Assembly: GCA_963845185.1 (NCBI GenBank)
Contig: CAWJRG010000005.1
Span: 256,001 to 320,000 of the forward strand
Source of the DNA: an uncultured bacterium
GTDB lineage: Bacteria; Oederibacteriota; PGYV01; CAWJRG01
Length of the DNA: 64,000 nucleotides
Direction of reading: 5' to 3'
Part shown: in pieces, positions 27,276 to 62,905 of the stretch
Layout: each line of letters starts with the position of its first letter
Numbering within the stretch: position 1 is the stretch's first letter
The notes under the pieces: model-generated
Seen by the model: only the letters and a program-made list of their open reading frames with translations
The model's database searches: none
Told to the model about the DNA's origin: nothing
Position numbers and translations under genes: made by a program

Positions 27276-27323
27276 TCCTCCCGGACTTGCTTTCATCCTG
27301 ACACCGCCAAAAAATGACTAAAC

Positions 27324-31054: not shown

Positions 31055-34000
31055 TTATTGCATATTTTTAATCAATGCCGATAATTTAACTATCTTCCTC
31101 GTTTTGTTGCCTGTGGTATCCGCGCCTTCAACCACGCATATATATGTCCCGCTTGATACTGTCTGCCCGCCTACGCTTTTTAAATCCCAGTTTATGCTGG
31201 CAGCGCCCAGGTCTCCTACAAGCGTCCTGACAAGCTCCCCTGCTATGTTATATATCTTTATCTTTATCACGCCGTTTGCGCTTGGCTGCCATGTGAATAC
31301 CAATGGTGTTGACGTATCGCCTGTGTACGGGTTCGGCAGCGTTTTAACTGTGCCGAGAACATCTGAGCTCCCTTCGTCCAGTATAGTAATTGACTTGCTC
31401 GCAACCACGCTGAAACCCGATTTTGTCTTTAACACAAGTTGTACCTCATATACACCGCTCTGTAGATAATCTCCCTGGGAGTTCTTGCCGTCCCATGTTA
31501 AAGGCGGATTTGACGAAGTGTAACCGATTGTTATCAGCGGCGAGCCCTTGCCAACCGGCAATACATAATTGCTGATGCCATTGGTATTGCTTATGCTCAG
31601 CGAAACCTGGTCGCTGCCGTTATATGGAGTTATTATTGTCTGCACAAGCTCTCCTGCGCTGTTGAATATATTTACCTGCACGTACTGGCTTTCGTTAATC
31701 ACTGATACCGGCTTCGTTATTATGTCCGTATGCCCGTACGGGTCTGTTGTCGTTTCCTTTATGTAATACTCGCCGTTTGCCACATTCTGGCCCGCGCTGT
31801 TTGTCCCGTCCCATGTAAAGCTCGCGTACCCGTTTTTCTGCTGGTCAGGCGTCTCCAGGCCCGGCACCTTTATTGTCAGCGCTGTACCCGAGCCGGGCGC
31901 CACCACTGCTGTCTGGCTGCCGTTTATCAGCAGCTGCACCTGCTGCGCTTCCTGCGATGTCGTAGTGCTTGCTATTGTTTTTACCAGCTCTCCTGCCTCG
32001 TTATACACGCTTATGTTCATCACATACGGGAACGGTATCGGCGTTATCGTTATTGTAACTGTCTGCGTGTTTGTATCCGTATATGTTATTGTCGCGCTCA
32101 GCGTATTTGTCGCCGTATTTGTCGCAGTCATCGTTCTTGTATCTGTGTATGTTACTGTTAATGTTATTGTGTCCGTATATGTATATGTCTGCGTAAGTGT
32201 GCTTGTATATGTGGACGTCGACGTTGACGTGTATGTAGGCGTATCTACAGGCGTATCTGTGCATGTTGATGTCAGCGTCACGGTGCTGGTTGAAGTCGCG
32301 CTCACCGTGGACGTAAAAGTCGGAGTATCAGTAGTCGTATCAGTATATGTCGGTGTATCTGTAGTCGTGCTGCTTGGCGTCGGGCTTACAGTAGGCGTGT
32401 ACGTAGGCGTATCCACAGGCGAATCTGTATATGTCGGCGTTGCCGTATCTGTCGGCGTGTCTGTATATGTGAATGTCGGCGTGTCTGTATCCGTATACGT
32501 CGGCGTGTTTTGCACTGTATCTGTAAATGTCGGCGTCGCTGTGCTTGTGTATGTATCTGTCTGCGTGTATGTCAGGGTTATTGTTTTTGTCGCTGTGTAT
32601 GTCGGCGTGAATGTTGCGGACAGTATCACAACCGTGAATGTCATTGTTATCGTATATGTAGGCGTCACCGTGTTTGTATATGTCGCAGTATTCGTGCTTG
32701 TGTATGTCACTGTCATCGTGTACGTGGATGTCGGCGACAGCGTATTTGTATATGTCGGTGTCGACGTAGGTGTGTCCGACTGTGTATCTGTCACTGTTAT
32801 TGTCCTCGTTGCCGTGTATGTCGGCGTGAATGTCGCGGACAGTATCACAACAGTAAATGTCATTGTTATTGTATATGTCGGCGACACCGTATCCGTATAT
32901 GTTGCCGTATTTGTGCTTGTGTACGTCACTGTCCGTGTATACGTGGGCGTGGGTGACATCGTATCTGTGAATGTCGGCGTTGCTGTCGTCGTCACTGTCT
33001 GCGTATCTGTCAGCGTTATTGTATCTGTAGGCGTATTTGTCCTGGTTATTGTGTATGTCGGCGTATATGTCGCGGACAGTATTACAACCGTAAATGTCAT
33101 TGTTATTGTATATGTCGGCGTAACCGTATTTGTCACTGTTGGCGTCACTGTCATCGTGTCAGTGTATGTGTATGTATATGTCACTGTACGTGTGTATGTC
33201 GGCGTCGGCGACATCGTATCTGTGTATGTCGGCGTTGCCGTCGCCGTTACTGTCTGCGTGTCCGTCAGCGTTATTGTATCTGTCGGCGTATTTGTTTTGG
33301 TTATGGTGTATGTCGGCGTGATTGTCGCGGACACTATCACAACCGTGAATGTCATTGTTATTGTGTATGTCGGCGTTATCGTGGATGTGTCAGTCATTGT
33401 CACTGTGGTGGTATCTGTAAATGTATATGTATATGTTACCGTGCGGGTATATGTAGGTGTCGGTGACTGAGTATTTGTGAATGTAGGCGTCGGCGTAGGC
33501 GTGTCAGACTGCGTGAACGTAGGCGTAAATGTCCTGGTATCTGTCACTGATACTGTAATAGTCACGGTTGAAGTAAAAGTCGGCGTATCGGTCACTGTAA
33601 CAGTATTTGTGTATGTGTATGTTACTGTCTGCGTGTATGTAAAAGTATACGTCCTGGTAAATGTAACTGACACTGTGTTTGTCACGGTTAAAGTATCAGT
33701 AGGCGTAGGAGTCACTGTAATAGTATTTGTGTACGTATATGTCACTGTGCGCGTGTATGTCGGCGTCGGCGACATGGTATTTGTGAATGTCGGCGTCGGA
33801 GTCGGCGTGTCAGACTGCGTGTATGTAGGCGTATATGTCCTGGTATCTGTCACCGACACTGTATTTGTTACCGTGTAAGTAACGGTCGGTGAAGGCGTAA
33901 CTGTAATAGTATCTGTGTACGTATATGTCACTGTGCGCGTGTATGTCGGCGTCGGCGATGCGGTGTCTGTGAATGTCGGCGTCGGAGTCGGCGTCATCGT

Positions 34001-36715
34001 CTGAGTATAAGTCGGCGTATATGTCCTCGTGAATGTCACTGACACTGTATTTGTATTTGTCGGCGTAAACGTAATTGTATCTGTCACTGTATTAGTCCGT
34101 GTGTATGTGTATGTCACTGTCTGGGTGTATGTGGGCGTCCGCGTATAAGTAAATGTCGGGCTCGGGTTCGGCGTATTTGTGCGTGTAGGCGTGTCTGTAT
34201 ATGTCGGCGACGCGCATGTGTCATGCATAACAACCGTGGACACAGCCGAAGCAGACATACCGGGGTATGAAAGCGAGGCATTATTGTTCCAGTTGCATGT
34301 CTGCAAATGCTGGTTGTTTGTCAGCCACATCTGCCATGTATAGCATCCCGTGAATCCGCCGGGTGTCGGAACAATAGACACCGTGCTTACACCGTTATTT
34401 GTATTGACGTTTATTGTTGATATTCCTCCGGCATTTACGTTTGAATTGTTGCTCCAGTTAAACTGCCAGCCGTCCGCGTTATCGCTTGACCAGTCGTCAA
34501 TAATGGTAAAATTCTGCGTCGCCCCGCCGCTGGTGTTGCAGAACACGAGGTTGAATGTAACATTATCATTGGTAGTTGTTATTGTCGTTTTGCTGGCTGA
34601 TTTTGTCAGGGTAAATAACGGCGTGGGTGTTGGCGTGATTGTGGGTGTCGGCGATACGCATAGGACATTAAATACAACAGGGTTTGAGAATTCCGGTACC
34701 AAGCTTGTAGCTCCTATACCTCCGACATTTGTAAAGCTCTGGGCGCAGGCCGATGTGGATGCCCACCACGTGTACGAACCGCTCTGGTCGCTTATGTTGC
34801 CAAGGTTCCAGCTTACCGGGCTTGTTCCGCTTGCGCCCGGGCTTGACCCCTGATATGCCAGCCCTGAAGGTACCGTGTCATACAGCACGGCGTTTGCCGC
34901 CACCCTTGGCACTAACACCGTAAAATTATTATATTCGTCCTGTACAGTGCCGTTGCCGTCACCTGACTGGTTCCCGACTCCCGGCCTCCAGTCTGTATAT
35001 GTGGCTCCTGCAGCGCAGCTGTAAGGGCTGCTAGTAGCTGCTGCTCCTGCGTCTGTCCATGACACCTGGTAACCAGTTGGTTCAGGCTGGCCAATTGCCC
35101 ATATTTTTGAGTTAAATATATAGTCTGTACCGTTTGTCGTCATATATGTCTTGGTCCTGTACCATGTGTTCCCTGTTATAACAATCGCGCTTGAAGCGCC
35201 GCCATACGTGCATGCTGTCCCGCCCCCGCATCTTTGTATTGCCATATACCCGTTTGCAGGCGCAGTGTCTATTGATAAAAGCAATGAATATCCGTAGTTT
35301 GCGGTCCCTGAAAGGCCGTTATTCCTTAAAATCACCAGGCCGTCTGCACCCGGATATGTGCCCGGGTTTATAAAAACATCTGCTTCAATTACTCCGGTGC
35401 ATACCTGCACATTGGAAGGTGTCGGGTCGTCAAGTAAAAGCGCAGGATATGATGATGACTGGCCTGCTCCTGTTAAAATCCTGTCCCCTGTATTGCACGG
35501 GTCTGAAATTGTCCACGTGCCGTTGTCGGTATTATAAGGCTGGAATTTCCATCCTGCCGGCGGCGTGGTTTCAGAAGAGCCTGTGTTTGTGTCGTCAAAA
35601 GCCCTTAGTGCCTTTAGCTGGTCGCCGTTTACCTGGTAATTTAGGTAATATGTTATGGTTACCGAAGCGCTGGGCAGTTTCATGAATGTGTCCACGCTTT
35701 CAAGCTTCTGCACTGATATTGCAGCCTGCCCGACTATCAGAGTCGCTGACGCGCTGGCATTGCTGCCCCCGCTTGTTGCGTTTGCCGTATTCGGCACTGA
35801 TGTGCCTGACGCCATTGCTGTTGTCATCCTCATCAATATCCATACAGTGCCTGATTTCGTGTATGTGGAGGTCGGGAATGTCCATGTTACTGTGCCTGAC
35901 GTTGCTCCAGCACCAGGTGAACTCACGCTTCCGCTATTTATCGAGCTTGGGCCGACAGACACCAAAGCAAGACTTCCTCCGCCCGGCAGGCTGTCTGTTA
36001 TTGTGAGCGGCCCGTTGCCGTATGTATAATCCATGGAAAATAATACAAGGTCCCCTACTGACTGCAATACACCCTCTACTCTCTTATCCAAAGTTATTGA
36101 ATTCGCCGGCGGTGTAGGCAGCGGCCAGCTGAAAATCTTTGTATCCCCGTTATTTGCGCAGGCGTTTGACTGGAAACCAGCCCAGTCGCTTGAAGCCAAA
36201 TTCGCGCTTTTCATTGCCGCCATCAGGTATAAAGTCGTTGCCCCGCACGAAGTGCCCATGTCAGCTGCCTGCGGCATGGTCAGGTTAAACTGCAGGCTTT
36301 GATTGTAACCGTCAAAAGAGCCGCTATTTGCGCATGTGTCGCAGGTTAGCGGTGTCGCAGCAGGAACCGGCAACTGATAGCCCATGTTGTTGCCTGTAGT
36401 TTGCGCGTTATTCGGATTTGGGGTATGCACATCAACTCCGTTAAAGCTTACTAAAAACATTTGTCCGCCTGTATTTGCAGGCGACCAGGTCCCGCTTGTG
36501 CTTACGGCTATATCAAGTTCGTTCTGGTTGTAAGCGTCGTGGCATACATTCATGGTTACGACAAATTGCTGCCCCCAGCCCGGGTTGGCAGGATTCATCG
36601 TCATTGATAGTATTGCAGGAATGCCAGCAAAGATATAATTGCCGGATAATAAAAATATTAGTATTATTATTCCTTTTAAAATATTTACCTTTTTAAACTT
36701 TTTCAGTATTTTCAT
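31055..36715 (-). CDS. Giant secreted Thr-x-Thr repeat surface protein, subtype A (1886 aa), three FlgD/CTD-like C-terminal domains
   Basis: Signal peptide, family N-terminal domains, several hundred residues of alternating Thr, YNEAGELV / FNSAGELV / YNIAGELV domains, LPNPY. Confidence 0.9.
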   Translation of the reverse strand: MKILKKFKKVNILKGIIILIFLLSGNYIFAGIPAILSMTMNPANPGWGQQFVVTMNVCHDAYNQNELDIAVSTSGTWSPANTGGQMFLVSFNGVDVHTPNPNNAQTTGNNMGYQLPVPAATPLTCDTCANSGSFDGYNQSLQFNLTMPQAADMGTSCGATTLYLMAAMKSANLASSDWAGFQSNACANNGDTKIFSWPLPTPPANSITLDKRVEGVLQSVGDLVLFSMDYTYGNGPLTITDSLPGGGSLALVSVGPSSINSGSVSSPGAGATSGTVTWTFPTSTYTKSGTVWILMRMTTAMASGTSVPNTANATSGGSNASASATLIVGQAAISVQKLESVDTFMKLPSASVTITYYLNYQVNGDQLKALRAFDDTNTGSSETTPPAGWKFQPYNTDNGTWTISDPCNTGDRILTGAGQSSSYPALLLDDPTPSNVQVCTGVIEADVFINPGTYPGADGLVILRNNGLSGTANYGYSLLLSIDTAPANGYMAIQRCGGGTACTYGGASSAIVITGNTWYRTKTYMTTNGTDYIFNSKIWAIGQPEPTGYQVSWTDAGAAATSSPYSCAAGATYTDWRPGVGNQSGDGNGTVQDEYNNFTVLVPRVAANAVLYDTVPSGLAYQGSSPGASGTSPVSWNLGNISDQSGSYTWWASTSACAQSFTNVGGIGATSLVPEFSNPVVFNVLCVSPTPTITPTPTPLFTLTKSASKTTITTTNDNVTFNLVFCNTSGGATQNFTIIDDWSSDNADGWQFNWSNNSNVNAGGISTINVNTNNGVSTVSIVPTPGGFTGCYTWQMWLTNNQHLQTCNWNNNASLSYPGMSASAVSTVVMHDTCASPTYTDTPTRTNTPNPSPTFTYTRTPTYTQTVTYTYTRTNTVTDTITFTPTNTNTVSVTFTRTYTPTYTQTMTPTPTPTFTDTASPTPTYTRTVTYTYTDTITVTPSPTVTYTVTNTVSVTDTRTYTPTYTQSDTPTPTPTFTNTMSPTPTYTRTVTYTYTNTITVTPTPTDTLTVTNTVSVTFTRTYTFTYTQTVTYTYTNTVTVTDTPTFTSTVTITVSVTDTRTFTPTFTQSDTPTPTPTFTNTQSPTPTYTRTVTYTYTFTDTTTVTMTDTSTITPTYTITMTFTVVIVSATITPTYTITKTNTPTDTITLTDTQTVTATATPTYTDTMSPTPTYTRTVTYTYTYTDTMTVTPTVTNTVTPTYTITMTFTVVILSATYTPTYTITRTNTPTDTITLTDTQTVTTTATPTFTDTMSPTPTYTRTVTYTSTNTATYTDTVSPTYTITMTFTVVILSATFTPTYTATRTITVTDTQSDTPTSTPTYTNTLSPTSTYTMTVTYTSTNTATYTNTVTPTYTITMTFTVVILSATFTPTYTATKTITLTYTQTDTYTSTATPTFTDTVQNTPTYTDTDTPTFTYTDTPTDTATPTYTDSPVDTPTYTPTVSPTPSSTTTDTPTYTDTTTDTPTFTSTVSATSTSTVTLTSTCTDTPVDTPTYTSTSTSTYTSTLTQTYTYTDTITLTVTYTDTRTMTATNTATNTLSATITYTDTNTQTVTITITPIPFPYVMNISVYNEAGELVKTIASTTTSQEAQQVQLLINGSQTAVVAPGSGTALTIKVPGLETPDQQKNGYASFTWDGTNSAGQNVANGEYYIKETTTDPYGHTDIITKPVSVINESQYVQVNIFNSAGELVQTIITPYNGSDQVSLSISNTNGISNYVLPVGKGSPLITIGYTSSNPPLTWDGKNSQGDYLQSGVYEVQLVLKTKSGFSVVASKSITILDEGSSDVLGTVKTLPNPYTGDTSTPLVFTWQPSANGVIKIKIYNIAGELVRTLVGDLGAASINWDLKSVGGQTVSSGTYICVVEGADTTGNKTRKIVKLSALIKNMQ

Positions 36716-36923: not shown

Positions 36924-39900
36924 TTACTGCCCCATTTTAATTATTGCTGATAATTTAACTATTTTACGCTCTTTATTGCCTGTATTATCCACGCCTTCCA
37001 CCACGCATATATATGTCCCGCTTGATACTGTCTGGCCGCCTACGCTTTTTAAATCCCAGTTTATGCTGGCAGCGCCAAGGTCGCCGACAAGCGTCCTTAC
37101 AAGCTCGCCTGCTATGTTGTAAATCTTTATTTTTATTGTGCCGTTTGCGCTTGGCTGCCATGTGAATTTCAACGGTGTTGTCGTGTCTCCTGTGTACGGG
37201 TTCGGCAGCGGCTTTACGGTCCCAAGTACGCCGGCGCTTCCTTCGTTTAATATTGTAATTGACTTGCTTATCTTTGAGTTTACGCCCTGGCTTGTCTTTA
37301 CTATAATCTGCACCTCATATACCCCGCTCTGCAGGTAATCTCCCTGCGAATTTTTTCCGTCCCATGTCAAAGGCGGATTTGACGAAGTGTAACTGATTGT
37401 TATAGGCGGCGCTCCCTTGCCCACAGGGAATACGTCATTGCTGCCGTTACTATTGCTTAAGTTAAGCGAAACCTGGCCGCTGCCGCTATATGGCGCCCTT
37501 ATTGTCTGCACAAGTTCTCCAGCGCTGTTGAAGATATTCACCTGCACGTACTGGTCTTCATTAATCGCAGTTATCTGCTTTGTTATTATTTCCGAATGGC
37601 CGTACTGGTCCGTTGTAGTTTCCTTTATATAATACACCCCGTCCGCCACGTTCTGGCCCGCGCTGTTTGTCCCGTCCCACGTGAAATCAGAGTAAGTGTT
37701 TTTCTGCTGGTCAGGCGTTTGTATGCCGGGCACCCTTATTGTCAGCGCTGTCCCTGAGCCGGGCGACACCACTCCTGTCTGGCTGCCGTTCAGCAGCAGC
37801 TGTACCTGCTGCGCCTCCTGCGATGTAGTGGTATTTGCTATCGTTTTCACCAGCTCGCCTGCCTCGTTATACACGCTTATGTTCATTATGTACGGGAACG
37901 GTACAGGCGTTATAGTTATTGTGGGCGATTGGGTGAAAGTTACCGTGAATGTTATTGACGGCGTCATGGTGCATGTCTCGGAAAATGTTACTGTAAGTGT
38001 ATTTGTGTATGAGGCGGTTACGGTATATGTCGAAGTCGCGGACGCAGAAGCAGTCGAGGTCAGTGTGCGCGTCAGCGTGTATGTGGAGCTCGGCGTGTCT
38101 GTAACGGTATATGTGCGCGTATCCGTGACAGTATATGTCGGCGACAGTGTATTTGTCACTGACGGCGTTGCTGTCAATGTCATTGTATCCGTCAATGTGG
38201 GAGTATAAGTGATTGTGTCTGAAGGCGTGGCTGTATCAGTGATTGTGCGCGTCGCTGTTAATGTCATTGTATCAGTGAGCGTAGGTGTATAGGTGTAAGT
38301 ACAGGTGGGCGACAGCGTGTTTGTCACCGTAGGTGTGGCTGTGAACGTGCTCGTTTCGGTAAATGTCGCCGTATCTGTGCGTGTATACGTCACTGTCAGC
38401 GTGTCGGTCTGTGTCGCTGTTATTGTACCTGTATCTGACGGCGTTATCGTGTTTGACGCTGTGGGTGTGTCCGTAAAAGTGCTGGTCTGCGTGAATGTTG
38501 GCGTAAATGTGGCTGTATCTGTAGGCGACAATGTATTTGTGACGGTCGGTGTATTTGTAAATGTGCTCGTTGCCGTGAAGGTGGATGTATCCGTCTTGGT
38601 ATTTGTTAGTGTGCTGGTTTGGGTAAATGTCGAAGTGAATGTCGGTATAAAAGGCGTGCCCGTCACTGTAGCCGTATCTGTCTGTGTAAATGTCAAAGTC
38701 ACTGTCGGTGTGTTTGTCGGGGTGCCCGTTGGTGTGGCCGTAGGAGAGGCCGTCGCTGTGGACGTATAGGTTTTAGTAAGCGTTGCTGTGTATGTGGGCG
38801 TCCACGTGGGCGTATTTGTCGGTGTATCCGTAAGCGTAGGGTTTGGCACTGTATTTGTCAGCGTCGGCGTTGATGTGACTGTGTACGTGTACGTAGGCGT
38901 TTGTGTGCTTGTATAAGTATCGGTCACCGTGTACGTGCTTGTCGGCGTAGGCGAGTTTGTATATGTCGGCGTTGCCGTATATATCGGCGTATTGGTGGCT
39001 GATTTTATTATCTGCGTGAATGTCATTGTTATCGTGTATGTCGGCGTTATTGTGCTTGTCGCCGTCTGCGTCACCGTGAATGTATTTGTATTTGTGGATG
39101 TATATGTCACTGTCTGTGTATACGTGGGCGTCGGCGACGCTGTAACTGTATATGTAGGCGTTGCAGTCGGCGTGGATGTTTTTGTGTCCGTATTTGTCAC
39201 CGTGTTTGTGTCGGTTAATGTCGGCGTTATCGTATATGTCGGAGTATCGGTGGCAGATTTTATTATCTGCGTGAATGTCATTGTTATCGTGTATGTCGGC
39301 GTTATTGTGCTTGTCGCTGTCTGCGTCACCGTCATCGTGTCGGTAAATGTGAATGTATATGTAACTGTCTGTGTATACGTGGGCGTCGGCGATGCTGTAA
39401 CTGTATATGTAGGTGTTGCAGTCGGCGTGGATGTTTTTGTGTCCGTATTTGTCACCGTGTTTGTGTCGGTTAATGTCGGCGTTATCGTATATGTCGGAGT
39501 ATCGGTGGCAGATTTTATTATCTGCGTGAATGTCATTGTTATTGTGTATGTCGGCGTTATCGTGTTTGTCGCTGTCTGCGTCACCGTCATCGTGTCGGTA
39601 AATGTGAATGTATATGTAACTGTCTGTGTATATGTAGGCGTCGGCGTCGCTGTAACTGTATATGTAGGCGTCGATGTCGGCGTGTCCGTCAGCGTGAATG
39701 TCGGCGTTATTGTCTTTGTGAATGTTGCGGATACTGTATTTGTCAGTGTTGAAGTGTAAGTCGTCGTTGCCGTGATTGTATCGGTAAATGTGAATGTATA
39801 CGTCACCGTCTGGGTATATGTGGGCGTAGGCGATGCTGTAATTGTAAACGTCGGCGTATTTGTAGGAGTGGATGTTTTTGTGTCCGTATTTGTCACTGTA

Positions 39901-42900
39901 TAAGTATCGGTTATTGTCGGTGTTATCGTGTATGTCGGTGTAAATGTTGCTGATAAAGTCACCGGAGTGTACGACATTGTTATTGTATATGTCGGTGTTA
40001 TTGTATCTGTATATGTAGCTGTTACTGTCCTCGTGGCAGTGTATGTGAATGTATAAGTCACTGTCTGCGTGTATGTCGGTGTCGGCGATGCTGTAACTGT
40101 ATATGTCGGTGTCGTAGTAGGTGTGTCAGTCAGCGTAAATGTCGGCGTATACGTCTTTGTAAAAGTCACGGACACTGTAATTGTCACTGTTGAAGTATAA
40201 GTCGGCGTCGCTGTCACTGTAAGTATCTGTTTTTGTGTATGTGTATGTTGGCGAAGGCGTGTCTGTCAGCGTTATCGTAGGCGTATTCGTGAGCGTCGGC
40301 GGGTTTTGCGGCGTATTTGTCGCTGTCGTAGTGTTCGTAAATGTATATGTCACTGTCATCGTGTACGTATCTGTCGGCGACAGGGTGTTTGTGTATGTCG
40401 GCGAGCTGGTAGGCGTTGCTGACTGCGTGTCTGTTAATGTAATTGTCAGTGTTATTGTGTACGTTGGTGTAAATGTAGCTGATATTATAAACGGCGTGAA
40501 TGTAAGCGTTATTGTATATGTCGGCGTTGTTGTTTTTGTAGGCGTTGCCGTATTTGTGCTTGTATATGTCACTGTCTGCGTATACGTGGGCGTTGGCGAT
40601 TGCGTGTTTGTGTAAGTGGAGGTTGCCGTAGACGTCGGCGTGTTCGTGCGCGTCACGGTAATGGTTGGTGTTATTGTATATGACGGCGTAAATGTGGCTG
40701 ACAAAGTTATCGGAGTGTATGACATTGTTATAGTATATGTCGGCGTCTGTGACCTTGTCGGCGTAGCAGTGAATGTGAACGTATATGTCACTGTCTGGGT
40801 GTACGTAGGCGTTGGCGATGCCGTGATTGTATATGTCGGCGTCGCTGTCGGCGTGTCTGTCAGCGTGTATGTAAATGTTATTGTCCTGGTAAATGTCATT
40901 GACACAGTATTTGTCAGGGTCGGGGTATCAGTCCGCGTTGCCGTGGATGTGTCCGTATTTGTATATGTATATGTCACTGTTTGCGTGTATGTAGGCGTCG
41001 GCGATGCCGTATTTGTGTATGTCGGCGTTGCTGTCGGCGTGTCCGTCAGCGTATATGTGGACGTTATTGTCTTAGTGAATGTCACTGATACTGTATTTGT
41101 CTGGGTCGGAGTATCAGTCTCCGTAGAAGTCTTTGTGGCAGTAAATGTATATGTATATGTCACTGTCTGGGTGTATGTTGGTGTCGGCGATGCTGTGTTT
41201 GTGTTCGTCGGCGTTACAGTCGGCGTGTCGGTCAGCGTGTATGTAGGCGTTATTGTCCTGGTAAATGTAACAGTAACCGTGTTTGTCACAGTTGGAGTAT
41301 CAGTCAGCGTAGAAGTCCTTGTTGCAGTATTTGTGAATGTGTATGTCTGCGTCTGCGTGTATGTAGGTGTCATGGTGCGTGTGGCAGTGTATGTCGGCGT
41401 CCGCGTATATGTGTAAGTCGGCGTGAATGTAGGCGTCTGCGCCGCGCACTGGTCCTGCAAAAGTACCGTTGATACAACCGAGGGTACTCCATTAAAAGCC
41501 ACTGAAGCGTTATTATGCCAGTTGCATGTGTTATTTGACTGCGCGTTTCCTATAAACATCTGGAATGTAAAGCATCCTGAAAATCCCGTAGGTGTCGGCA
41601 CAAATATAAATTGAGTCCATCCGGCACTCGGAGTCCCGACATTGGCAGTTACGGAATATAATCCCGGCCCAGCCGGGCTGGTGTAATAAGGGTTCATATA
41701 TTGCCACTGGTCAGCAGAACCGCTCGACCAGTCGTCATAAACAGTAAAATTCTGCGTCACAGCGCCGCTGTTGTTGCATATTACCAGGTTAAATGTAAGC
41801 TGGTCGGTGTGGACGATGTTAGTCGTTTTACTGGATGTTTTTACCAGCGTAAATGCCGGCGTGGATGTCGGTGAAACCGTAGGTGTAGGCGACGTGCACA
41901 GCACGTTGAATACTGTCTGGTTTGAAAATACCGCTGCAGGGCTTCCTGCGCCTGAACCTGCAATACCTGCGACATTTGTAAAACTCTGGTTGCACGCATT
42001 TGTCGTGGCCCACCAAGTGTATGAACCGCTCTGGTCGCTTATATTACCAAGGCTCCACTCTACCATGGGGCTTGTGGTGCCTGCGCCGGGATTTGACCCT
42101 GAGTATGTCAACCCTGTAGGTACCGTATCATACAATGTAGTATTTGCCGATACCCTCACGTTGTATGTCAGGAAATTATTATATGAGTCCTGCGTTGTGC
42201 CGTCCTGGTCGTTTCCCTGCTCGGCTATGCCCGGCCTCCAGTCAGAGTTGGTGCCGCCATGGTCAGGGCATTCCCAGTTCGGGTCTGTGCTTGATGCGCT
42301 GCTGTCTGTATAGGTTAGCTGGTATCCGGTAGGCTCTGCCTGTCCCACCTGCCATACCTTTGCCTGGAAAGTAAATCCGTTTCCGCTTATAAGTATTTTT
42401 ACCCTGTACCATGTATTGCCTGTTATCACAAGTGTTGCAGGGTCAACAAAAGCAGGCCATGAGCAGGCTCCGCCGCCGCATTTTTGTATGCCAACATACC
42501 CGCCCGCAGGCGCAGTATCTATTGACAAAAGCAAAGAGTACGCGTAACCCGCGGCCCCATTCAGGCCGTTGCTTCGGATTATTATAAGAGCGTCCGCGCC
42601 TACGTAAGCGCCAGGATTAATCATAACATCGGATTCTATGATTCCGGAATCGCACATCTGCACATTCGCAGGCGTCGGGTCGTCCAGAAGTAGGTCAGGA
42701 TACACTTTGGCTCCGGTCACGCTTGCTGTTACTATCCTGTCGCCTGTATTGCACGCGTCGCTTATTGTCCATGTGCCATACTGGCCGCTACCGTTGCCGT
42801 CAGGCTGAGCTTTCCAGCCAGGCGGCGTTGAGCCCGGAGGATTATATGCCTGGTTTGGATTGTCGTCAAACATCCTTATTGCCTTTAACACATCCCCGTT

Positions 42901-43950
42901 TATCTGGTAATTAAGATAATATGTTATTGCCACTGTGGCGCTCGGCAGTTTCATAAATGTATTAACGCTTTGTGATTTCTCCAACGACAGGGCAACTGTG
43001 CCCACTGTAAGGGATGTCGTGGATGAGCTGTTGCTTGAGCCGTTTGTGCCTGTGGCTGTATTGTTTATCACTGTGCCTGTCGCTATCGCGCACGTCATCT
43101 GCAAAAGTATCCATACTGTCCCGCTTTTGGTATAAGTCGTGCTCGGCAAAGTCCATGATACCGTGCCTGACGTTGCGCCTATAGCTGGCGCTGATACGCT
43201 GCCTCCTGAGGGCGCCGGGTTCGGGCCGTAATCAACAAGCGCCAGGCAGCTGTTCGGAATCGGGTCGGTTATTACCGCAGAGCCGTCGCCGTATGTGTAA
43301 TCAACTTCATAAAGAACCTTATCCCCGACAAGCGCCAGCGTGCCCTCAACCCTCTTATGCACGCTTACTGCGGGTGTCGACGGCGCTGGCAATGGCCAGC
43401 TTAAAGCCTTGTAGCAGGACGCTGACAGCGCGCCCCAGTCGCTTGAGCCCATATTATTGTTTCTGCCGCCCACAAGCAGGTTTAATGTTGTCGCCCCGCA
43501 GCCCGCAGCTCCCATGTCCGTTGCGTTCGGCATTGTCAGAGTATATTGCGCATTTTCCTGCATGCCTGTGCCGCCCGAACATTCAGTGCAATTCGGCATA
43601 AAATTGCCTGGTTGCGGAATAACTACTCCTATATCTCCAGTGCTCGGGTTTGCAGTATGGACATCAACTCCTGCCACGCTCACCAAAAATATCTGTCCGC
43701 CTGTATTTGCCACACGTACTGTATTTTGTGTGCTTACGGCTATGGCATAATCAAAACTGTTATACTGGTCCACGCAATATGAAATAGTAACGTCGAATTG
43801 CTGTCCCCAGCCGGGATTTGTTGGATTCATGCTTACGGAAATTATTCCGTCTGCTTGTATTAAGGAAGGTATTATTAGGAATGATAATATGATAAGGCAT
43901 AAACTGGTGTTTTTAACTGCTTTAGGCGTCTTGTTCAAGATCGTTTTCAT
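36924..43950 (-). pseudogene. Giant Thr-x-Thr surface protein, subtype B, split by a frameshift near 40222 (ORFs 40126..43950 and 36924..40217)
   Basis: The two halves match the N- and C-terminal halves of intact 55776..62831. Restoring 2 nt gives one 2342-aa ORF. May be a sequencing error. Confidence 0.8.
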
Positions 43951-44269: not shown

Positions 44270-47200
44270 TCATTGCCCCGACTGAATTATTGCGGACAAT
44301 TTAACTATCTTCCTCGTTTTGTTTCCTATAGTATCCACGCCTTCAACCACGCATATATATGTCCCGCTTGATACTGTCTGCCCGCCCACGCTTTTCAAAT
44401 CCCAGTTTATACTGGCCGCACCCAGGTCTCCAACAAGCGTCCTTACAAGCTCCCCTGCGATGTTGTAAATCTTTATTTTTATCGCGCCGTTTGCACTTGG
44501 CTGCCATGTGAATATCAACGGCGTTGACGTGTCTCCAATGTACGGGTTCGGCAGGGACTTTATGGTCCCGAGCACGTCTGTGTTTCCTTCATTCAGTAAC
44601 GTTATTGACTTGCTCGCCTTTATGCTTATGCCCTGGTTTGTCTTTACCACAAGCTGTACCTCGTATACCCCGCTCTGCAGGTAATTTCCCTGCGCGTTCT
44701 TCCCGTCCCATGGCACATTCAATCCTGTTGTTGTATAGCCTATAACTATCGCCGGCGCTCCCTTGCCGATGCCGAATACATAATTATTGCTGCCTGTGCT
44801 GTTGCTGATGCTCAGCGATACCTGGCCGCTGCCGTTATACGGGGCTGTTATTGTCTGCACAAGCTCTCCCGCGCTGTTGAATATATTCACCTGCACGTAC
44901 TGGTCTTCGTTAATCGCGGTTATCTGCTTTGTTATTATATCTGAATGCCCGTACGGGTCTGTTGTCGTTTCTTTGATGTAATATGTCCCGTTTGTTACAT
45001 CCTGGCCAGCGCTGTTTGTCCCGTCCCATGTAAAGCTCGCGTACCCGTTTTTCTGCTGGTCAGGTGTCTCCAGGCCCGGCACCTTTATTGTCAGTGGTGT
45101 CCCTGAACCGGGCGCCACCACTGTTGCCTGGTTGCCGTTTAATAGCAGCTGCACCTGCTGCGCCTCCTGCGATGTCGTAGTGCTTACTATTGTTTTTACC
45201 AACTCTCCTGCCTCGTTATACACGCTTATGTTCATCACATACGGGAACGGCACTGGCGTTATCGTTATTGTCACCGTCTGCGTGTTTGTGGATGTGTATG
45301 TTATTGTCGCGCTTAGCGTGTTTGTCGCCGTGTTTGTTGTAGTCAATGTTCTTGTGTTTGTCCACGTCATTGTTGCTGTTATTGTGTCCGTGTATGTGTA
45401 TGTCTGCGTAAGTGTGCTGGTATATGTCGGTGTCGACGTTGACGTGTATGTAGGAGTATCCACCGGCGTATCTGTGTATGTCGATGTCAATGTGTATGTG
45501 TATGTCAGTGTAAGCGTGCTGCTTGAAGTAATGCTTACAGTAGGCGTGAACGTAGGCGTGTCTGTCGGCGTATTTGTGTATGTCGATGTATCTGTCGGCG
45601 TGCTGCTAGGTGTCGGGCTTACAGTCGGCGTATCCGTCGGCGTATCCACCGGAGAATTTGTATATGTCGGTGTTGCCGTATCTGTCGCTGTGGCTGTCGG
45701 CGTAGCTGTATATGTATATGTGGGTGTGCCCGTATCAGTTTCTGTACTTGTATAAGTGTATGTCGGCGTATCTGACGGGGTATCAGTTTGCGTATATGTC
45801 AGGGTCGTTGTTTTTGTCACAGTATATGTCGGCGTGAACGTCGCAGACAATATCACCACCGTAAATGTCATTGTTATAGTGCATGTCGGCGTATCTGTAT
45901 TTGTATATGAAGGCGTCGCCGTGCTTGTGTCCGTCACTGTCTGCGTATATGTGAATGTCGGCGAAGTTGTGTTTGTGTACGTGGGCGTTGCTGTCGGAGT
46001 ATCTGTCTGCGTGTCTGTCACAGTTATTGTCCTTGTTGCTGTGTATGTTGGCGTATATGTGGCGGACAGTATTACAACCGTGAATGTCATTGTTATAGTG
46101 TATGTCGGCGATACCGTATCCGTATATGTCCCTGTCGCCGTACTTGTGTCTGTCACTGTTTGCGTGTATGTAGGCGTCGGCGATGTCGTGTTTGTATATG
46201 TCGGCGTTGCTGTCGGCGTGTCTGTCTGCGTGTCTGTCACGGTTATTGTCCTCGTTGCCGTGTATGTCGGCGTAAATGTCGCGGACAGTATCACCACCGT
46301 GAATGTCATTGTTATCGTGTATGTAGGCGTTACTGTATTTGTATATGACGCCGTGTTCGTGCTTGTGTATGTCACCGTCTGAGTGTATGTGGGCGTCGGC
46401 GATGTGGTGTTTGTATATGTAGGCGTCGACGTCGGCGTATATGTCTGAGTATCTGTCACTGTTATTGTTTTCGTTACCGTATATGTTGGAGTAATTGTCG
46501 CGGACACTATCACAACCGTGAATGTCATTGTTATTGTGTATGTCGGCGTCACCGTATCCGTTGGTGTAGGCGTCGCTGTGCTTGTGTACGTCACTGTCCG
46601 GGTATATGTGGGCGTCGGTGATGCCGTGTTTGTATATGTCGGCGTGGGCGTGGGCGTGTCAGTCAGCGTAAATGTAGGCGTATATGTCCTGGTAAACGTT
46701 ACTGACACTGTGATTGTCATAGTTGGAGAAGGCGACGGCGTCACCGTCATTGTATCGGTAAAAGTATAAGTATATGTCACTGTTTGCGTGTATGTTGGCG
46801 TCGGCGATGCGGTGTTTGTGTATGTCGGCGTATTTGTCGGCGTATATGTTTTTGTATCCGTCACTGTCACCGTGTAAGTCGGGGTTGACGTTTGCGTTAT
46901 CGTAAACGTCGGAGTATATGTCGCGGACAGTATCACGACAGTGAATGTCATTGTTATCGTGTATGTCGGGGTTACTGTATTTGTCACTGTCGGTGTATAC
47001 GTCTTTGTGGCAGTGTACGTGAATGTATATGTCACTGTCTGCGTGTATGTTGGTGTAGGCGATTGCGTGTTTGTATATGTTGGTGTCGCCGTAGGTGTGT
47101 ACGTCCGGGTAAATGTCGGTGTCTGCGTATATGTATATGTAGGTGACAGCGTGTTTGTGAACGTCGACGTAGGTGTTGGCGTGGCGGTCTGCGTGTATGT

Positions 47201-49927
47201 AGGCGTATATGTCCTGGTATCTGTCACGGATACTGTATTTGTAACTGTTAAAGTAAAAGTCGGCGTCGGCGTCACTGTAATGGTATACGTATATGTATAT
47301 GTAACTGTCCGCGTGTACGTGGATGTCGGCGAAAGCGTGTTTGTGAATGTCGGCGTCGGCGTCGGTGTCTGCGTCTGCGTGAATGTAGGCGTATCTGTCC
47401 TGGTATCTGTCACTGACACTGTATTTGTCACTGTCAAAGTAAACGTGGGCGTCGGCGTCACTGTAATGGTATCTGTATATGTATATGTAACTGTCTGGGT
47501 GTATGTGTATGTCTGTGTATTTGTCCTTGTAAATGTCGGAGTGGGTGACGGTGTATTCGTGTTTGTCGGCGTAAATGTATTCGTGTATGTCGGTGTCTGC
47601 GAAGGCGTATCTGTCCTTGTAAATGTCGGAGTATAAGTAACTGTGTATGTAAAGGTATATGTGTAAGTGTATGTTGCTGTGTTCGTATAAGTGTCTGTCG
47701 GCGTCGGAGTCTTTGTATATGTGGGCGATGGCGTGTCTGTATAAGTAAACGTGCTTGTCGGCGTATCTGTCCTGGTAAACGTATATGTAGGTGTGAATGT
47801 AGGCGTGTATGTAAATGTTGGCGTATTTGGATTAACAGTCGGTGTCGGTGTCCTTGTCGGCGTTGCCGTGAATGTAGGCGACATGCATATAATGTTAAAT
47901 ACAACCGGGTTTGAAAATTCCGATACTATATTTGTCGCTCCTATGCCTCCCACATTTGTAAAGCTCTGGGCGCATGCATTCGTTGATGCCCACCAAGTGT
48001 ATGACCCGCTCTGGTCGCTTATATTACCGAGGCTCCAGCTTACAATGCCTCCTGAATCTGTCCCGCTCGGGTTTGACCCCTGATATGTCAGCCCTGTAGG
48101 CACTGTATCGTACAAAGTCGCGTTTGCCGCCACTCTCGGTATTAATACTGCAAAGTTATTATATGAATCCTGCGTTGTGCCGTAGTCGCCTGACTGCTGC
48201 CCGACACCCGGCCTCCAGTCAGTATATGTACCTGTGCCTGAGCAGTTCCAGGCAGCGTTGGACGCTGCTCCGGTATCTGTCCATGTAACCTGGTAACCTG
48301 TCGGTTCAGGCTGGCCCACCTGCCATACTTTTGCCTGGAATATATAATCACTACCGTTTGTCGTCATCCATGTCTTTGTCCTATACCATGTATCCCCGGT
48401 TATTGTCACAGAACTTGAAGCGCCGTTCCACGTGCAGCTTGAGCCTGCACATTTCTGTATAGCCATGAATCCGCCTGCGGGAGCCGTATCTATTGATAAA
48501 AGCAGACTGTAAGCTTCGGCATTGCCTCCTGATTGCCCATTGCTTCTCAGGATTACCAGTCCGTCTGCGCCCGGGTATGTTCCTGGGTTTATATAAATAT
48601 CAGACTCAATTATTCCTGTGCAAACCTGCACGTTCGAAGGAGTCGGGTCGTCAAGCAAAAGCGCGGGATATGAAGCTGTCTGTCCTGCTCCTGTCAATAT
48701 CCTGTCACCTGTATTGCACGGGTCTCCTATTGTCCATGTTCCATTGTCGCCGCTTGTAAATGGCAATAATTTCCACCCGGAAGGCGGCCCGCTGTTGCCG
48801 TATGTCCCTGTCGCTGTGTCGTCAAACGCCCTGTAGTCTTGGAGCTTGTCCCCGTTCACCTGGTAATTGAGATAATATGATATCGTCACTGTGGCGTTTG
48901 TCGCTTTCATAAATGTGGTTACGCTTTCCAGTTTTTCCACTGATATTGCTGCCTGGCCAACTATCAGCGTTGCTGACGCGCTTGCATTGGTTGAACCGCT
49001 TGTTGCGTTTGCAGTATTCGGCACTGACGTTCCTGACGCCATTGCAGTTGTCATCCTCATCAATATCCATACTGTTCCTTGTTTTGTATAGGTTGAAGCA
49101 GGGAATGTCCATGTTACCGTGCCTGACGTGGATCCTGCCGCAGGCGCGCTCACGCTCCCGCTGTTTATTGAGCTCGGACCTACAGACACCAAAGCAAGGC
49201 TTCCTCCGCCCGGCAAAGCGTCTGTTATTGTCAGCGATCCGTTACCGTATGTGTAATCTATTGAAAATAATACAAGGTCGCCGACTGACTGCAGAACTCC
49301 CTCTACTCTTTTATCCAAAGTAACTGAATTAGCAGGCGGCGTAGGTAATGACCAGCTTAATACTGCCCCTGAGCCGCTTGTACTGCATGCTCCATTTGAT
49401 AAAGCAGTCCAAAGACTCCCCCCAAAATATGAAGTTTGTGCTCCTATCAGTAAATTAAGTGTTGTCGAGCCGCATGCTGTGCCCATCTGCTGTGCGCTCG
49501 GCATTGTCAGGTTATACGACTCTGTAACCAACATGCCTGAACCGCTACCGCAATCAGTACAATTGGCAACAAATGGTGATGGTTGAGGCATATGATAGCC
49601 AAAATCAGTGCCGCTGCTTCCGTTATTCGGATTTGTGTCCGGAATGTTAATGCCATCACTGCTTATTAAAAATATCTGTCCTCCCGTCTGTGCCGGCTGG
49701 AATGTGCTGCTCGTGCTCACTGCTACAAGCAACTCATTGGGAGTAGAATACTGATCCACGCACATTTGCAAAGTCAGAATAAATTGCTGTCCCCAGCCCG
49801 GGCTTGCCGGTGCTATATTCTCAGAAATTATCTGCGGAGAGCCAGCGTAAAGTAAGCTGCCGGATAATATTAATATTATTATGCCAATAAAAATATTTAT
49901 CTTTTTTAAACTGTTTCGCATTCTCAT
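44270..49927 (-). CDS. Giant secreted Thr-x-Thr repeat surface protein, subtype A (1885 aa)
   Basis: Closest paralog of 31055..36715 (LDKRVEGVLQSVGDLVLFS, GASSS, near-identical tail) but lacks its third DUF11-like domain. Confidence 0.9.
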   Translation of the reverse strand: MRMRNSLKKINIFIGIIILILSGSLLYAGSPQIISENIAPASPGWGQQFILTLQMCVDQYSTPNELLVAVSTSSTFQPAQTGGQIFLISSDGINIPDTNPNNGSSGTDFGYHMPQPSPFVANCTDCGSGSGMLVTESYNLTMPSAQQMGTACGSTTLNLLIGAQTSYFGGSLWTALSNGACSTSGSGAVLSWSLPTPPANSVTLDKRVEGVLQSVGDLVLFSIDYTYGNGSLTITDALPGGGSLALVSVGPSSINSGSVSAPAAGSTSGTVTWTFPASTYTKQGTVWILMRMTTAMASGTSVPNTANATSGSTNASASATLIVGQAAISVEKLESVTTFMKATNATVTISYYLNYQVNGDKLQDYRAFDDTATGTYGNSGPPSGWKLLPFTSGDNGTWTIGDPCNTGDRILTGAGQTASYPALLLDDPTPSNVQVCTGIIESDIYINPGTYPGADGLVILRSNGQSGGNAEAYSLLLSIDTAPAGGFMAIQKCAGSSCTWNGASSSVTITGDTWYRTKTWMTTNGSDYIFQAKVWQVGQPEPTGYQVTWTDTGAASNAAWNCSGTGTYTDWRPGVGQQSGDYGTTQDSYNNFAVLIPRVAANATLYDTVPTGLTYQGSNPSGTDSGGIVSWSLGNISDQSGSYTWWASTNACAQSFTNVGGIGATNIVSEFSNPVVFNIICMSPTFTATPTRTPTPTVNPNTPTFTYTPTFTPTYTFTRTDTPTSTFTYTDTPSPTYTKTPTPTDTYTNTATYTYTYTFTYTVTYTPTFTRTDTPSQTPTYTNTFTPTNTNTPSPTPTFTRTNTQTYTYTQTVTYTYTDTITVTPTPTFTLTVTNTVSVTDTRTDTPTFTQTQTPTPTPTFTNTLSPTSTYTRTVTYTYTYTITVTPTPTFTLTVTNTVSVTDTRTYTPTYTQTATPTPTSTFTNTLSPTYTYTQTPTFTRTYTPTATPTYTNTQSPTPTYTQTVTYTFTYTATKTYTPTVTNTVTPTYTITMTFTVVILSATYTPTFTITQTSTPTYTVTVTDTKTYTPTNTPTYTNTASPTPTYTQTVTYTYTFTDTMTVTPSPSPTMTITVSVTFTRTYTPTFTLTDTPTPTPTYTNTASPTPTYTRTVTYTSTATPTPTDTVTPTYTITMTFTVVIVSATITPTYTVTKTITVTDTQTYTPTSTPTYTNTTSPTPTYTQTVTYTSTNTASYTNTVTPTYTITMTFTVVILSATFTPTYTATRTITVTDTQTDTPTATPTYTNTTSPTPTYTQTVTDTSTATGTYTDTVSPTYTITMTFTVVILSATYTPTYTATRTITVTDTQTDTPTATPTYTNTTSPTFTYTQTVTDTSTATPSYTNTDTPTCTITMTFTVVILSATFTPTYTVTKTTTLTYTQTDTPSDTPTYTYTSTETDTGTPTYTYTATPTATATDTATPTYTNSPVDTPTDTPTVSPTPSSTPTDTSTYTNTPTDTPTFTPTVSITSSSTLTLTYTYTLTSTYTDTPVDTPTYTSTSTPTYTSTLTQTYTYTDTITATMTWTNTRTLTTTNTATNTLSATITYTSTNTQTVTITITPVPFPYVMNISVYNEAGELVKTIVSTTTSQEAQQVQLLLNGNQATVVAPGSGTPLTIKVPGLETPDQQKNGYASFTWDGTNSAGQDVTNGTYYIKETTTDPYGHSDIITKQITAINEDQYVQVNIFNSAGELVQTITAPYNGSGQVSLSISNSTGSNNYVFGIGKGAPAIVIGYTTTGLNVPWDGKNAQGNYLQSGVYEVQLVVKTNQGISIKASKSITLLNEGNTDVLGTIKSLPNPYIGDTSTPLIFTWQPSANGAIKIKIYNIAGELVRTLVGDLGAASINWDLKSVGGQTVSSGTYICVVEGVDTIGNKTRKIVKLSAIIQSGQ

Positions 49928-61700: not shown

Positions 61701-62831
61701 GCTCGGAGCAGTAGTGCTTGATGACCCGTTTGCATCGTCGTCAAACATCCTTATTTCCTTAAGCACGTCTCCGTTTATCTGATAATTAAGGTAATATGTT
61801 ATTGTCACTGACGCGCTCGGCAGTTTCAGGAATGAATTAATGCTTTCTGATTTTTGCAGGGACAGGGCAACTGTGCCCACTGTGAGGTTCGCCGTGGAGT
61901 TGGATGTTGCCGAACCGTTTGTACCTGTGACAGTGTTCGTTATAACTGTGCCTGTTGCTATTGCGCATGTCATCTGCAGCAGGATCCAGACCGTACCTGA
62001 CTTGGTGTAGGTCGTGCTCGGCATAGTCCATGACACTGTGCCTGAAGTTGAGCCAAGCGCAGGTGCGGTTACCGAACCCGTGCTTGGCGCTGGGTTCGGG
62101 CCGTAATCAACAAGCGCGAGGCAACCTCCACCGGGTATCGGGTCTGTTATTGTGGCAGCGCCGTTGCCGTATGTGTAATCAACAGAATAAAGGACTTTGT
62201 CTCCTACAAGCGCGAGCGTGCCCTGCACATTCTTATGCACGGTTACTGACTGCGCCGGCGTCGGAAGAGACCAGTTTAAGGAAGTAATATCGCATGCTGC
62301 CATGCCCTGGCCCCAGTTCTGCATATTATTATTTTCATAAGCAGCATAAAGGTATAAGGTTGATGCACCGCACCCGGATGCTCCCATATCAGTAGCCTGC
62401 GGCATTGTAAGCGTATACTGGACTGATACCGTTTCACCGCTTGTCGAGCCGCCGCATTCTGTGCAGTTCGGCGTAAAAGGGCTTGGAATGGAAACAGGCA
62501 GGCCCATCTGGCAGTTGTTCGGGCAAGGGTTCGCAGAATGCACATCGACGCCAAGCACGCTTACCAGGAATACCTGGCCGCCTGTGTTTTCAACCTGCGG
62601 CGTATTATGCGTGCTTACAGCTATGGCAAAGTCTCCGGCATTATACTGGTCAACGCAGTATGTGGCATAAACATTGAACTGCTGTCCCCATCCGGGGTTT
62701 GTGGGATTCATGGTCAATGAAACCATTCCGTCGGCTTTTATTATGGAAGGAATCAATAGAATTGATAAAATTATAAGGCACAAAGTGCCGCTTTTGAATG
62801 CTTTAGGCGTTTTACTCAATAACTTTTTCAT
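55776..62831 (-). CDS. Giant secreted Thr-x-Thr repeat surface protein, subtype B (2351 aa)
   Basis: Start moved to ATG 62831: [11 protein letters not shown] aligns with [11 protein letters not shown] of the paralog, and TTG 62888 lies inside the promoter. Same architecture as the family. Confidence 0.9.
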
Positions 62832-62877
62832 CTTTAATCTCCGCCTTTTAAATCTCTTTTCCTTTGTTGACCTAATT

Positions 62878-62905
62878 TTAGACAACAATAACTGTCAAAA
62901 GTTTC
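62878..62905 (-). promoter_or_regulatory. ECF sigma-type promoter GAAACTT-N14-TGTCTAA
   Basis: 47 nt upstream of ATG 62831. Confidence 0.75.

Follow-up and report, generated by a model that had tools for sequence, protein, structure and literature searches.

Gene C and its stalk

The DNA considered here is a stretch of 64,000 nucleotides (nt) from an uncultured bacterium of the Oederibacteriota (GenBank assembly GCA_963845185.1, contig CAWJRG010000005.1, positions 256,001 to 320,000 of the forward strand). The whole stretch is called the window, and positions are counted from its first letter. On its minus strand lies gene C, an open reading frame (ORF) for a secreted surface protein with an N-terminal head, C-terminal domains and, between them, a long stalk in which Thr, or sometimes Ser, occupies every second residue. 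A preliminary description, made from the sequence, had placed this alternating Thr-x stalk at 32030-34210; it corresponds to amino acids (aa) 836-1558 (nt 32042-34210) of the minus-strand ORF 31055-36715, and all the coordinates and counts given at that time have been reproduced. The head family and the overall plan recur in six further ORFs of the window, which represent five genes with stalks of 77 to ∼1210 aa.

The gene C protein has a Lys-rich start and then a hydrophobic stretch running to IFAG, read by eye from the translation as a signal peptide; similar N-termini are picked out by a crude regular expression in 77 of the 112 stalk ORFs. The region between head and stalk (aa 691-835) has DUF7507 as its sole Pfam match, a weak one (E 4.3), and the second small beta domain that it contains can be seen by eye in ORFs C, D1 and F but not in A, B and E. 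Behind the stalk, the FlgD_ig family (PF13860) matches with 68.4 bits against a cut-off of 27.

Register, nodes and modules

The alternation is strict. Runs of T/S at positions i and i+2 reach 137 consecutive T/S in gene C, and the longest run in ORF 55776-62888 has 196 register positions. The x residues include the set listed in the preliminary description (Y, F, V, I, P, D, N, Q and R), a list that proved too short, since A, S, L, M, K and W occur as well. Glycine is found at 0 of the 723 residues of the gene C stalk. The same stalk holds 38 acidic and 17 basic residues.

Punctuating the alternation are the nodes, in gene C of the type [14 protein letters not shown], at spacings of 85, 79 and 73 aa (255, 237 and 219 nt). 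In ORF 44270-49927 a spacing of 423 nt is followed by three of 219 nt (node codons at 46537, 46318, 46099 and 45880), in ORF 36924-40217 one of 441 nt by two of 255 nt (codons at 39545, 39290 and 39035), and in ORF 55776-62888 one of 441 nt by three of 255 nt and one of 213 nt (codons 58736 to 57758). A motif search also recovers the second module, TVSVT, which repeats every 62 aa (186 nt); in gene C its three whole copies are followed by a partial one at aa 1054. Tandem Repeats Finder independently gives the periods 219, 255, 186 and 441.

Unit lengths had been said to be odd and to respect a two-residue register, and both statements hold. The lengths are all odd (71, 73, 79, 85, 141 and 147), as are node-to-node spacings throughout the genome (55 of 55, in 23 ORFs). 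Each gene C node moves the Thr register by one residue. Among the 273 junctions between neighbouring runs in the genome, 165 are in register and 108 are flipped, and 92 of these 108 flips consist of the four-residue hydrophobic insert of a node; flips are thus almost confined to nodes, which accounts for the odd node spacings. Indels follow the register too: every gap in the module alignment is even, a result that is favoured by any aligner matching T to T. Nowhere else in the stalk do four hydrophobic residues follow one another, and the 78 copies of the node, in 23 ORFs, hardly vary. The contention that the stalk is not an ordinary Pro-Thr (PT) linker is supported.

Selection on Thr and probable copying of stalk DNA

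A regular pattern of this kind could be kept by selection on the protein or by homogenisation of the DNA, and the codons bear on this. In a 13-row alignment of module arrays, at least two Thr codons are used in 117 of the 125 all-Thr columns, and the amino acid varies in 138 of the 169 x columns. The mixed codons in the Thr columns, together with the variable x residues, establish that Thr is kept by protein-level selection and not by DNA homogenisation alone.

The stalk DNA appears to move between genes. Between gene C and a paralog elsewhere in the genome (G000 C1:63582-69323), a piece of the stalk is 93% identical and the heads are 62% identical; in a gene with an unrelated head, the stalk piece is 92% identical to that of gene C. 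The stretches compared are window 32612-33532 with G000:C1:65571-66491 and with C1:60144-61064. In general, the stalk pieces of paralogs resemble each other more than their heads do. Stalk identities of 92-93% beside heads that are 62% identical or unrelated suggest that stalk cassettes are copied between genes, or undergo gene conversion.

Spread through the genome and the phylum

The stalk is a generic, portable linker, with one pattern carried by many heads. Runs of at least 10 alternations occur in 143 ORFs of the 3.50-Mb assembly, compared with 2 after per-ORF shuffling. They amount to 587 runs and 21,257 register positions (92% T, 8% S), covering ∼42,500 residues or ∼3.65% of the genome DNA, and the longest unbroken run has 934 register positions (∼1870 residues). 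Genome-wide, x is Pro in 22% of cases, V, I, L, M, F, Y or W in 39%, acidic in 6% and basic in 3%; the aromatic residues Y (9.9%), F (4.9%) and W (3.7%) sum to 18.5%. The 23 ORFs with the 78 nodes have differing, unrelated heads and tails. In the 112 stalk ORFs a median of 448 aa lies ahead of the stalk and 130 aa behind it, and 37 of the 50 ORFs with a tail like a sorting C-terminal domain (CTD) carry a stalk; its usual place is directly ahead of the C-terminal sorting domain.

Across the phylum, 81 of 99 genomes match a DNA pattern of 12 Thr codons at period 6, usually with hundreds to thousands of matches each; controls with the reversed pattern give no match or next to none in most genomes, and 149 at the most. 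The pattern has no match in any of the 18 genomes (G001-G018) of families f11-f15, which nonetheless hold 2-16 TMEM260-like genes as well as PorV-family genes. The PorV family was considered as an explanation of these pattern-free families and rejected, as it is present in 99 of the 99 genomes.

Closer to gene C, all 20 loci of the head family in 10 related genomes have T-x stalks, roughly 200-370 aa long, with other x residues, other lengths and other punctuation; VVILSAT nodes are found in none of these 20 stalks. The Thr pattern is conserved between relatives while the sequence is not. The stalks exemplify, in extreme and unusually clean form, a sequence rule held without conserved sequence, in most of a candidate phylum.

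Predicted structure of the stalk and the head

The preliminary description took the stalk for a regular beta structure with a continuous Thr face, and the structure prediction that was run for the monomer gives this no support. An AlphaFold2 model of 307 residues (three modules and their flanks, 13-row alignment) has a mean predicted local distance difference test (pLDDT) score of 35.9, with all 307 residues below 50, and a predicted template modelling score (pTM) of 0.31. At a similar alignment depth (19 rows), the head (aa 31-690) reaches a mean pLDDT of 82.4 and a pTM of 0.69. The stalk is drawn as almost all strand according to DSSP, in long beta hairpins, with very low confidence. Autocorrelation over lags 2-60 reveals no short coil-like period of Pro or of hydrophobic residues in the gene C stalk, the maxima being at most 0.25 for Pro and at most 0.30 for hydrophobic residues, with no single peak. 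In other stalks of this genome and of its relatives, Pro recurs every 4-6 residues (for example in TPTFTA and TPTW units), which is hard to reconcile with a continuous sheet. An ESM Atlas search with a stalk piece gave a best score of 0.82, under the useful range. The only PDB profile match to the stalk, 6xi1 (E 6e-4), was rejected as compositional, with a bias of ∼30 and per-stretch E values of 0.2-0.6.

The head is predicted to be all-beta and multi-domain. It has neither a Pfam match nor a PDB sequence match; its family has 24 matches in a large protein database and is present in 21 of the 24 genomes of the order. Foldseek relates the model to the immunoglobulin (Ig)-like domains of PrgB (8beg, E 4e-9), to the C-terminal domains of antigen I/II, to macroglobulin-type domains and to a legume-lectin-fold chain (1dhk_B, with a target TM of 0.55); over the full query the TM scores come to a low 0.10-0.20, as a multi-domain model would lead one to expect. 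The model is consistent with a string of Ig-like domains and a lectin-like jelly roll, and points to an adhesin.

Secretion and anchoring

The C-terminal tails resemble those sorted by a type IX secretion system (T9SS). Por_Secre_tail (PF18962, Pfam cut-off 27) scores 25.0 on gene C, 28.8 on ORF 36924-40217 and 23.3 on ORF 55776-62888, and TIGR04183 scores 19.6 on ORF 24270-27296 against a cut-off of 23. The two PorV/PorQ genes of the window score 111.7 and 134.5 bits with NF033709, for which the cut-off is 90. This family has 40 matches in the genome, most of them over the cut-off, and among the 37 matches listed 12 adjoin stalk genes, compared with 0.92 expected, which gives the impression that each cargo cluster has its own shuttle-like outer-membrane protein. 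The SprA model gives four collinear matches in a 2148-aa ORF (G000:C9:182882-186208), which sum to ∼198 bits against a cut-off of 200. The Pfam family SprA_N has no match in the genome, and the control genomes are silent too. A PorU-like sortase was not found in the genome, where the PorU model matches by its CTD part alone at 50 of 51 places.

Sequence matches of this kind make a T9SS-like secretion route likely and leave membership of the T9SS tentative. The proteins share with T9SS type A cargo (Por_Secre_tail, TIGR04183/PF18962) the Sec signal peptide, the C-terminal beta-sandwich tail and PorV-family genes nearby. They differ from it in that the tail is at or below the cut-offs, PorU is not found, the SprA-like protein stays under its cut-off and the lineage lies outside the Bacteroidota. 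If the assignment is right, the stalk proteins would illustrate the passage of very long surface tethers through a T9SS-like route.

Paralogs and neighbouring genes

The features of gene C, its paralogs and its neighbours are collected in Table 1. Paralog D, ∼2330 aa in all, is broken at 40126-40260; a real frameshift, an assembly error in the repeats and a slippage site are the candidate causes. A look-up of sequencing runs listed a single DNA run, with 0.07 of the sampled words, and no RNA run.

Table 1. Features of gene C and of other genes in the window
Feature	Position (nt)	Strand	Basis or remark
Gene C, secreted surface protein, 1886 aa	31055..36715	-	ORF and translation; carries the stalk
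Signal peptide, aa 1-30	36626..36715	-	Read from translation
Head, aa 31-690	34646..36625	-	All-beta; AlphaFold2 and Foldseek
Short PT linker and second small beta domain, aa 691-835	34211..34645	-	Translation
Alternating Thr-x stalk, aa 836-1558, 723 residues	32042..34210	-	T/S runs, motif search
Three 62-aa (186-nt) TVSVT modules	33491..34048	-	Motifs at aa 890, 952, 1014
Node modules	32612..33364	-	[10 protein letters not shown](V/L)SAT at aa 1118, 1203, 1282, 1355
C-terminal FlgD-Ig-like domains and T9SS-like sorting tail, aa 1559-1886	31055..32041	-	Pfam, NCBIfam
Paralog E, 1885 aa, architecture as gene C	44270..49927	-	Compared with C: stalk piece 83%, head 70% identical
Paralog F, 2370 aa, stalk ∼1210 aa, 6 nodes	55776..62888	-	Translation, run and motif search
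Paralog D, one gene as two overlapping ORFs (40126-43950, 36924-40217)	36924..43950	-	Frameshift within stalk
Paralogs A (1008 aa) and B (819 aa), same head family, stalks of 115 and 77 aa	24270..29783	-	
Two tandem TMEM260-like glycosyltransferase C (GT-C) membrane proteins, C-terminal tetratricopeptide repeats (TPR)	50314-52650, 52987-55347	-	PF11028, 9rql
Two PorV/PorQ-family outer-membrane protein genes	15553-16473, 20200-21159	-	NF033709
Cargo gene, FG-GAP repeats and sorting tail	16588-18258	-	Pfam; between the PorV/PorQ genes
Glycosyltransferase family 2 (GT2), 229 aa	21229-21918	-	Most like polyprenyl-phosphate sugar transferases

Between paralogs E and F lie the two tandem GT-C genes, which are 57% identical to each other. 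Their PF11028 scores are ∼90 bits (cut-off 24.2), and they match the solved structure of TMEM260 (9rql) with an E value of 1.8e-21 over residues 16-455; several TPR families match C-terminally (E 1e-8 to 1e-14), and an acidic NDDSPE stretch, read from the translation, follows the first membrane helix. TMEM260 itself O-mannosylates proteins and has distantly related homologs in bacteria (PMC10214176). The genome has 25 TMEM260-like (PF11028) GT-C/TPR genes, the top count among the 99 phylum genomes. Of these copies, 24 have a G+C content below the genome mean of 0.423 (0.28-0.41), and a foreign origin of these genes, considered because of their low G+C, was rejected on this ground. The GT2 is nearest to ArnC, the GtrB-like sll0501 and dolichol-P-mannose synthase, and it may make the donor used by periplasmic GT-C enzymes.

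In this genome, TMEM260-like genes are found beside stalk genes more often than expected. Six of the 25 adjoin a stalk gene, compared with 1.51 expected in a gene-neighbour permutation (P 0.003), and eight lie within two genes of one, compared with 2.71; an interval-based null gives 0.58 expected for the six observed.

What the stalk may do

The stalk is probably an extended spacer under a pattern constraint that projects a binding or enzymatic head away from its outer-membrane anchor, with the Thr ladder most likely serving as an O-glycosylation array. The pattern, the selection on it, its position in the protein, its spread and its low predicted order are observed; extension, glycosylation and the choice of acting enzyme are inferred. 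Long, non-globular and extended, the stalk would have a hydroxylated beta-branched residue at every second position as its sole strongly selected feature. On one side of it stands a functional head and on the other the C-terminal domains by which the T9SS-like route would fix the protein to the outer membrane, and in gene C the stalk would hold the Ig-like and lectin-like adhesin head up to roughly 200 nm off the cell; simple arithmetic puts the full extension of that stalk at ∼180-245 nm. The Thr ladder would provide dense O-glycosylation sites, whose sugars would make the chain stiffer, shield it against proteases and cover the many aromatic and aliphatic x residues. The VVIL nodes would act as hydrophobic punctuation of the stalk, at which the register flips. 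Such a stalk would be the bacterial counterpart of the Ser-x dipeptide-repeat stalks and of fungal adhesin stalks. Of the two functions offered in the preliminary description, a glycosylation scaffold and a water- or ice-ordering surface, the scaffold is the better one, mostly by analogy; the tie to TMEM260-like enzymes that would go with it failed in relatives.

Several results weigh against an O-glycosylated spacer. A cruder first proximity test, which allowed random points inside stalk genes, gave P values of 0.04-0.13 for the TMEM260-like genes. Across the 99 phylum genomes, the number of PF11028 copies is uncorrelated with the Thr pattern (Spearman 0.14, p 0.17; −0.08 for family medians): 18 genomes with at least two copies lack the pattern, and 18 with the pattern have 0-1 copies. 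Within the 81 pattern-bearing genomes the raw correlation is 0.49, or 0.28 per megabase. A search with a home-made hidden Markov model, which recovered 6 of 6 known genes as a positive control, detected a TMEM260-like gene in 0 of 20 flanks (∼380 kb) of head homologs in 10 relatives, and such a gene abuts a stalk ORF in 1 of 27 cases (24 loci, 13 relatives). As the adjacency is missing in relatives and there is no co-variation in the phylum, the pairing of the stalk with TMEM260-like enzymes is weak and is not supported outside this genome. The obvious guess that these enzymes serve the stalks is one that the comparative data do not support, and a wrong assumption is thereby spared. The available text on the eukaryotic TMEM260 sequon gives it as Px6Px3Px2GGx3T (bioRxiv 10.64898/2026.09.21.753134), and this has 0 matches in the 7 ORFs of the window family; bacterial TMEM260 paralogs may have other specificities than the eukaryotic enzyme. 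Glycosylation of the stalk, sugars included, is plausible by analogy with known stalks. The composition also speaks against a classical disordered linker: V, I, L, M, F, Y and W together take 39% of the x positions, Gly is missing from the gene C stalk, and stretches of 17-21 residues free of Pro have a strong beta propensity and are drawn by AlphaFold2, at very low confidence, as long hairpins. A low pLDDT is what a fold without known precedent would also give, and is no proof of disorder.

A rival reading is an ordered rod, made of Pro-free T-x stretches that would join as long hairpins or ribbons, presenting Thr on one side and Y/F/V/I on the opposite side; the hydrophobic sides would lie buried inside a stalk or where stalks meet, and the nodes would flip the faces. 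The strict register (55 of 55 spacings odd, 92 of 108 flips at nodes), the even alignment gaps, the share of hydrophobic and aromatic x, the missing Gly, the preference for Thr over Ser (92:8) and a model that is nearly all strand by DSSP are all in line with such a rod. It is nevertheless unlikely, given a pLDDT below 50 at every modelled residue with a pTM of 0.31, Pro at 22% of x genome-wide and every 4-6 residues in many stalks, the lack of a constant strand-turn period, and orthologs that conserve neither the identity of x nor the length of the stalk. Its most far-reaching form, an undescribed Thr-ladder fold in which VVIL nodes rotate the faces and zip stalks into a surface lattice, is quite unlikely; were it true, 3.65% of the genome DNA would build a proteinaceous coat and not merely tethers. 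A more modest role for the nodes, compatible with a glycosylated spacer and likened to the amyloid-core sequences of the fungal Als/Flo adhesins, is that they zip stalks together, in cis or from cell to cell. Nodes are the sole four-hydrophobic runs and nearly invariant, and Als5, in the text available for PMC9306254, likewise pairs an Ig-like head with a Thr-rich region holding a GIVIVA core, repeats and a glycosylated stalk. The 20 loci of the 10 relatives do without nodes, which are therefore dispensable for basic stalk function, and the chance that nodes cluster stalks is put as small.

Aromatic x residues on an extended chain might instead bind cellulose or other glycans, so that the stalk adds avidity. 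Cellulose binding by glycosylated cellulase linkers is a published idea, 18.5% of x is Y, F or W, and the largest stalks contain TPTW units; the aromatic spacing, however, is irregular, and one stalk type serves many unrelated heads, which leaves contact with polysaccharides improbable. The water- or ice-ordering surface, modelled on the TxT arrays of insect antifreeze proteins, has the local TxT motif alone in its favour. The stalk lacks both a coil period of 12-19 residues and a confident solenoid, runs unbroken for up to 934 register positions, far past any ice-binding face, and is a generic linker pattern ahead of the anchor in more than 100 proteins (143 ORFs with the pattern) and in 81 of 99 phylum genomes. 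An ice-binding role is accordingly hardly to be expected. The extended, probably glycosylated spacer therefore remains the preferred explanation.

Relation to known systems

The closest known systems are analogues of the stalk and not its relatives. Serine-rich repeat glycoproteins such as Fap1 and GspB are glycosylated dipeptide-repeat stalks. In the Clf/Sdr proteins, the Ser-Asp repeats are glycosylated by SdgA and SdgB, which protects them (available text of PMC3794999). Both kinds of Gram-positive stalk share with the stalk described here a hydroxy amino acid that recurs at alternate positions for hundreds of residues, and a place between head and anchor. They differ in using Ser where Thr is used here, and Asp, Ala or Val where x is Pro, aromatic or aliphatic; the present stalks belong to a diderm, with a T9SS-like tail and hydrophobic register-flipping nodes, and LPXTG motifs, the anchor of the Gram-positive stalks, number 0 in the 7 ORFs of the window family. 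No conserved dedicated glycosyltransferase lies beside the genes here, and the systems are not homologous.

The fungal Als/Flo adhesins have in common with gene C an Ig-like head, a Thr-rich region, a hydrophobic beta-aggregation core and tandem repeats. In the text available for PMC9306254, their stalk is O-glycosylated, 500-1000 residues long and unstructured in AlphaFold, and for the glycosylated stalk of Als5, too, AlphaFold gives no structure. These adhesins differ in being eukaryotic, anchored by glycosylphosphatidylinositol (GPI) and O-mannosylated in the endoplasmic reticulum (ER) by PMT enzymes, and in having no strict two-residue register. The likeness is an analogy only.

PT boxes of bacterial cellulases, of the Cellulomonas fimi type, link the domains of secreted enzymes and are glycosylated in the native host. 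They are 20-50 residues long and have Pro as the only x. A (P-T)n box is a special case of T-x alternation, whereas the stalks here extend from 77 to more than 1800 residues, with diverse x (22% Pro) and modules of 62-85 aa that carry nodes. The antifreeze proteins of Tenebrio, Choristoneura and Rhagium are ice-binding beta-solenoids with TxT motifs; only the local T-x-T is common to them and to the stalk, which lacks a coil period and a confidently predicted fold and differs greatly from them in length and in genomic spread.

No description of Thr-x stalks was found in the literature outside subscription journals on Thr-rich, T9SS or PT linkers or on Goldbacteria; a term search of the available text of the Goldbacteria genome paper (PMC7031533) returned neither 'threonine' nor 'linker'. 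New here are the rule on nodes and parity, the evidence from codons, the census of genome and phylum, the fold of the head and the negative comparative tests of the TMEM260-like genes. The stalks offer a tractable system in which the purpose of the ladder can be sought: a glycosylation acceptor code, a stiff spacer or a beta scaffold.

Coding features on the opposite strand

Long plus-strand ORFs cover the stalks (for example 31965-33470, 38929-39759 and 45132-46382). They are best regarded as shadows of the ACN-NNN periodicity and not as genes; the same periodicity gives the stalk stretches a strong GC and AT skew. A gene for a CBS-GGDEF diguanylate cyclase (30018-30950) also lies on the plus strand, opposite to and in the middle of the adhesin gene array, and it could tie cyclic di-GMP (c-di-GMP) signalling to the surface proteins of the array.

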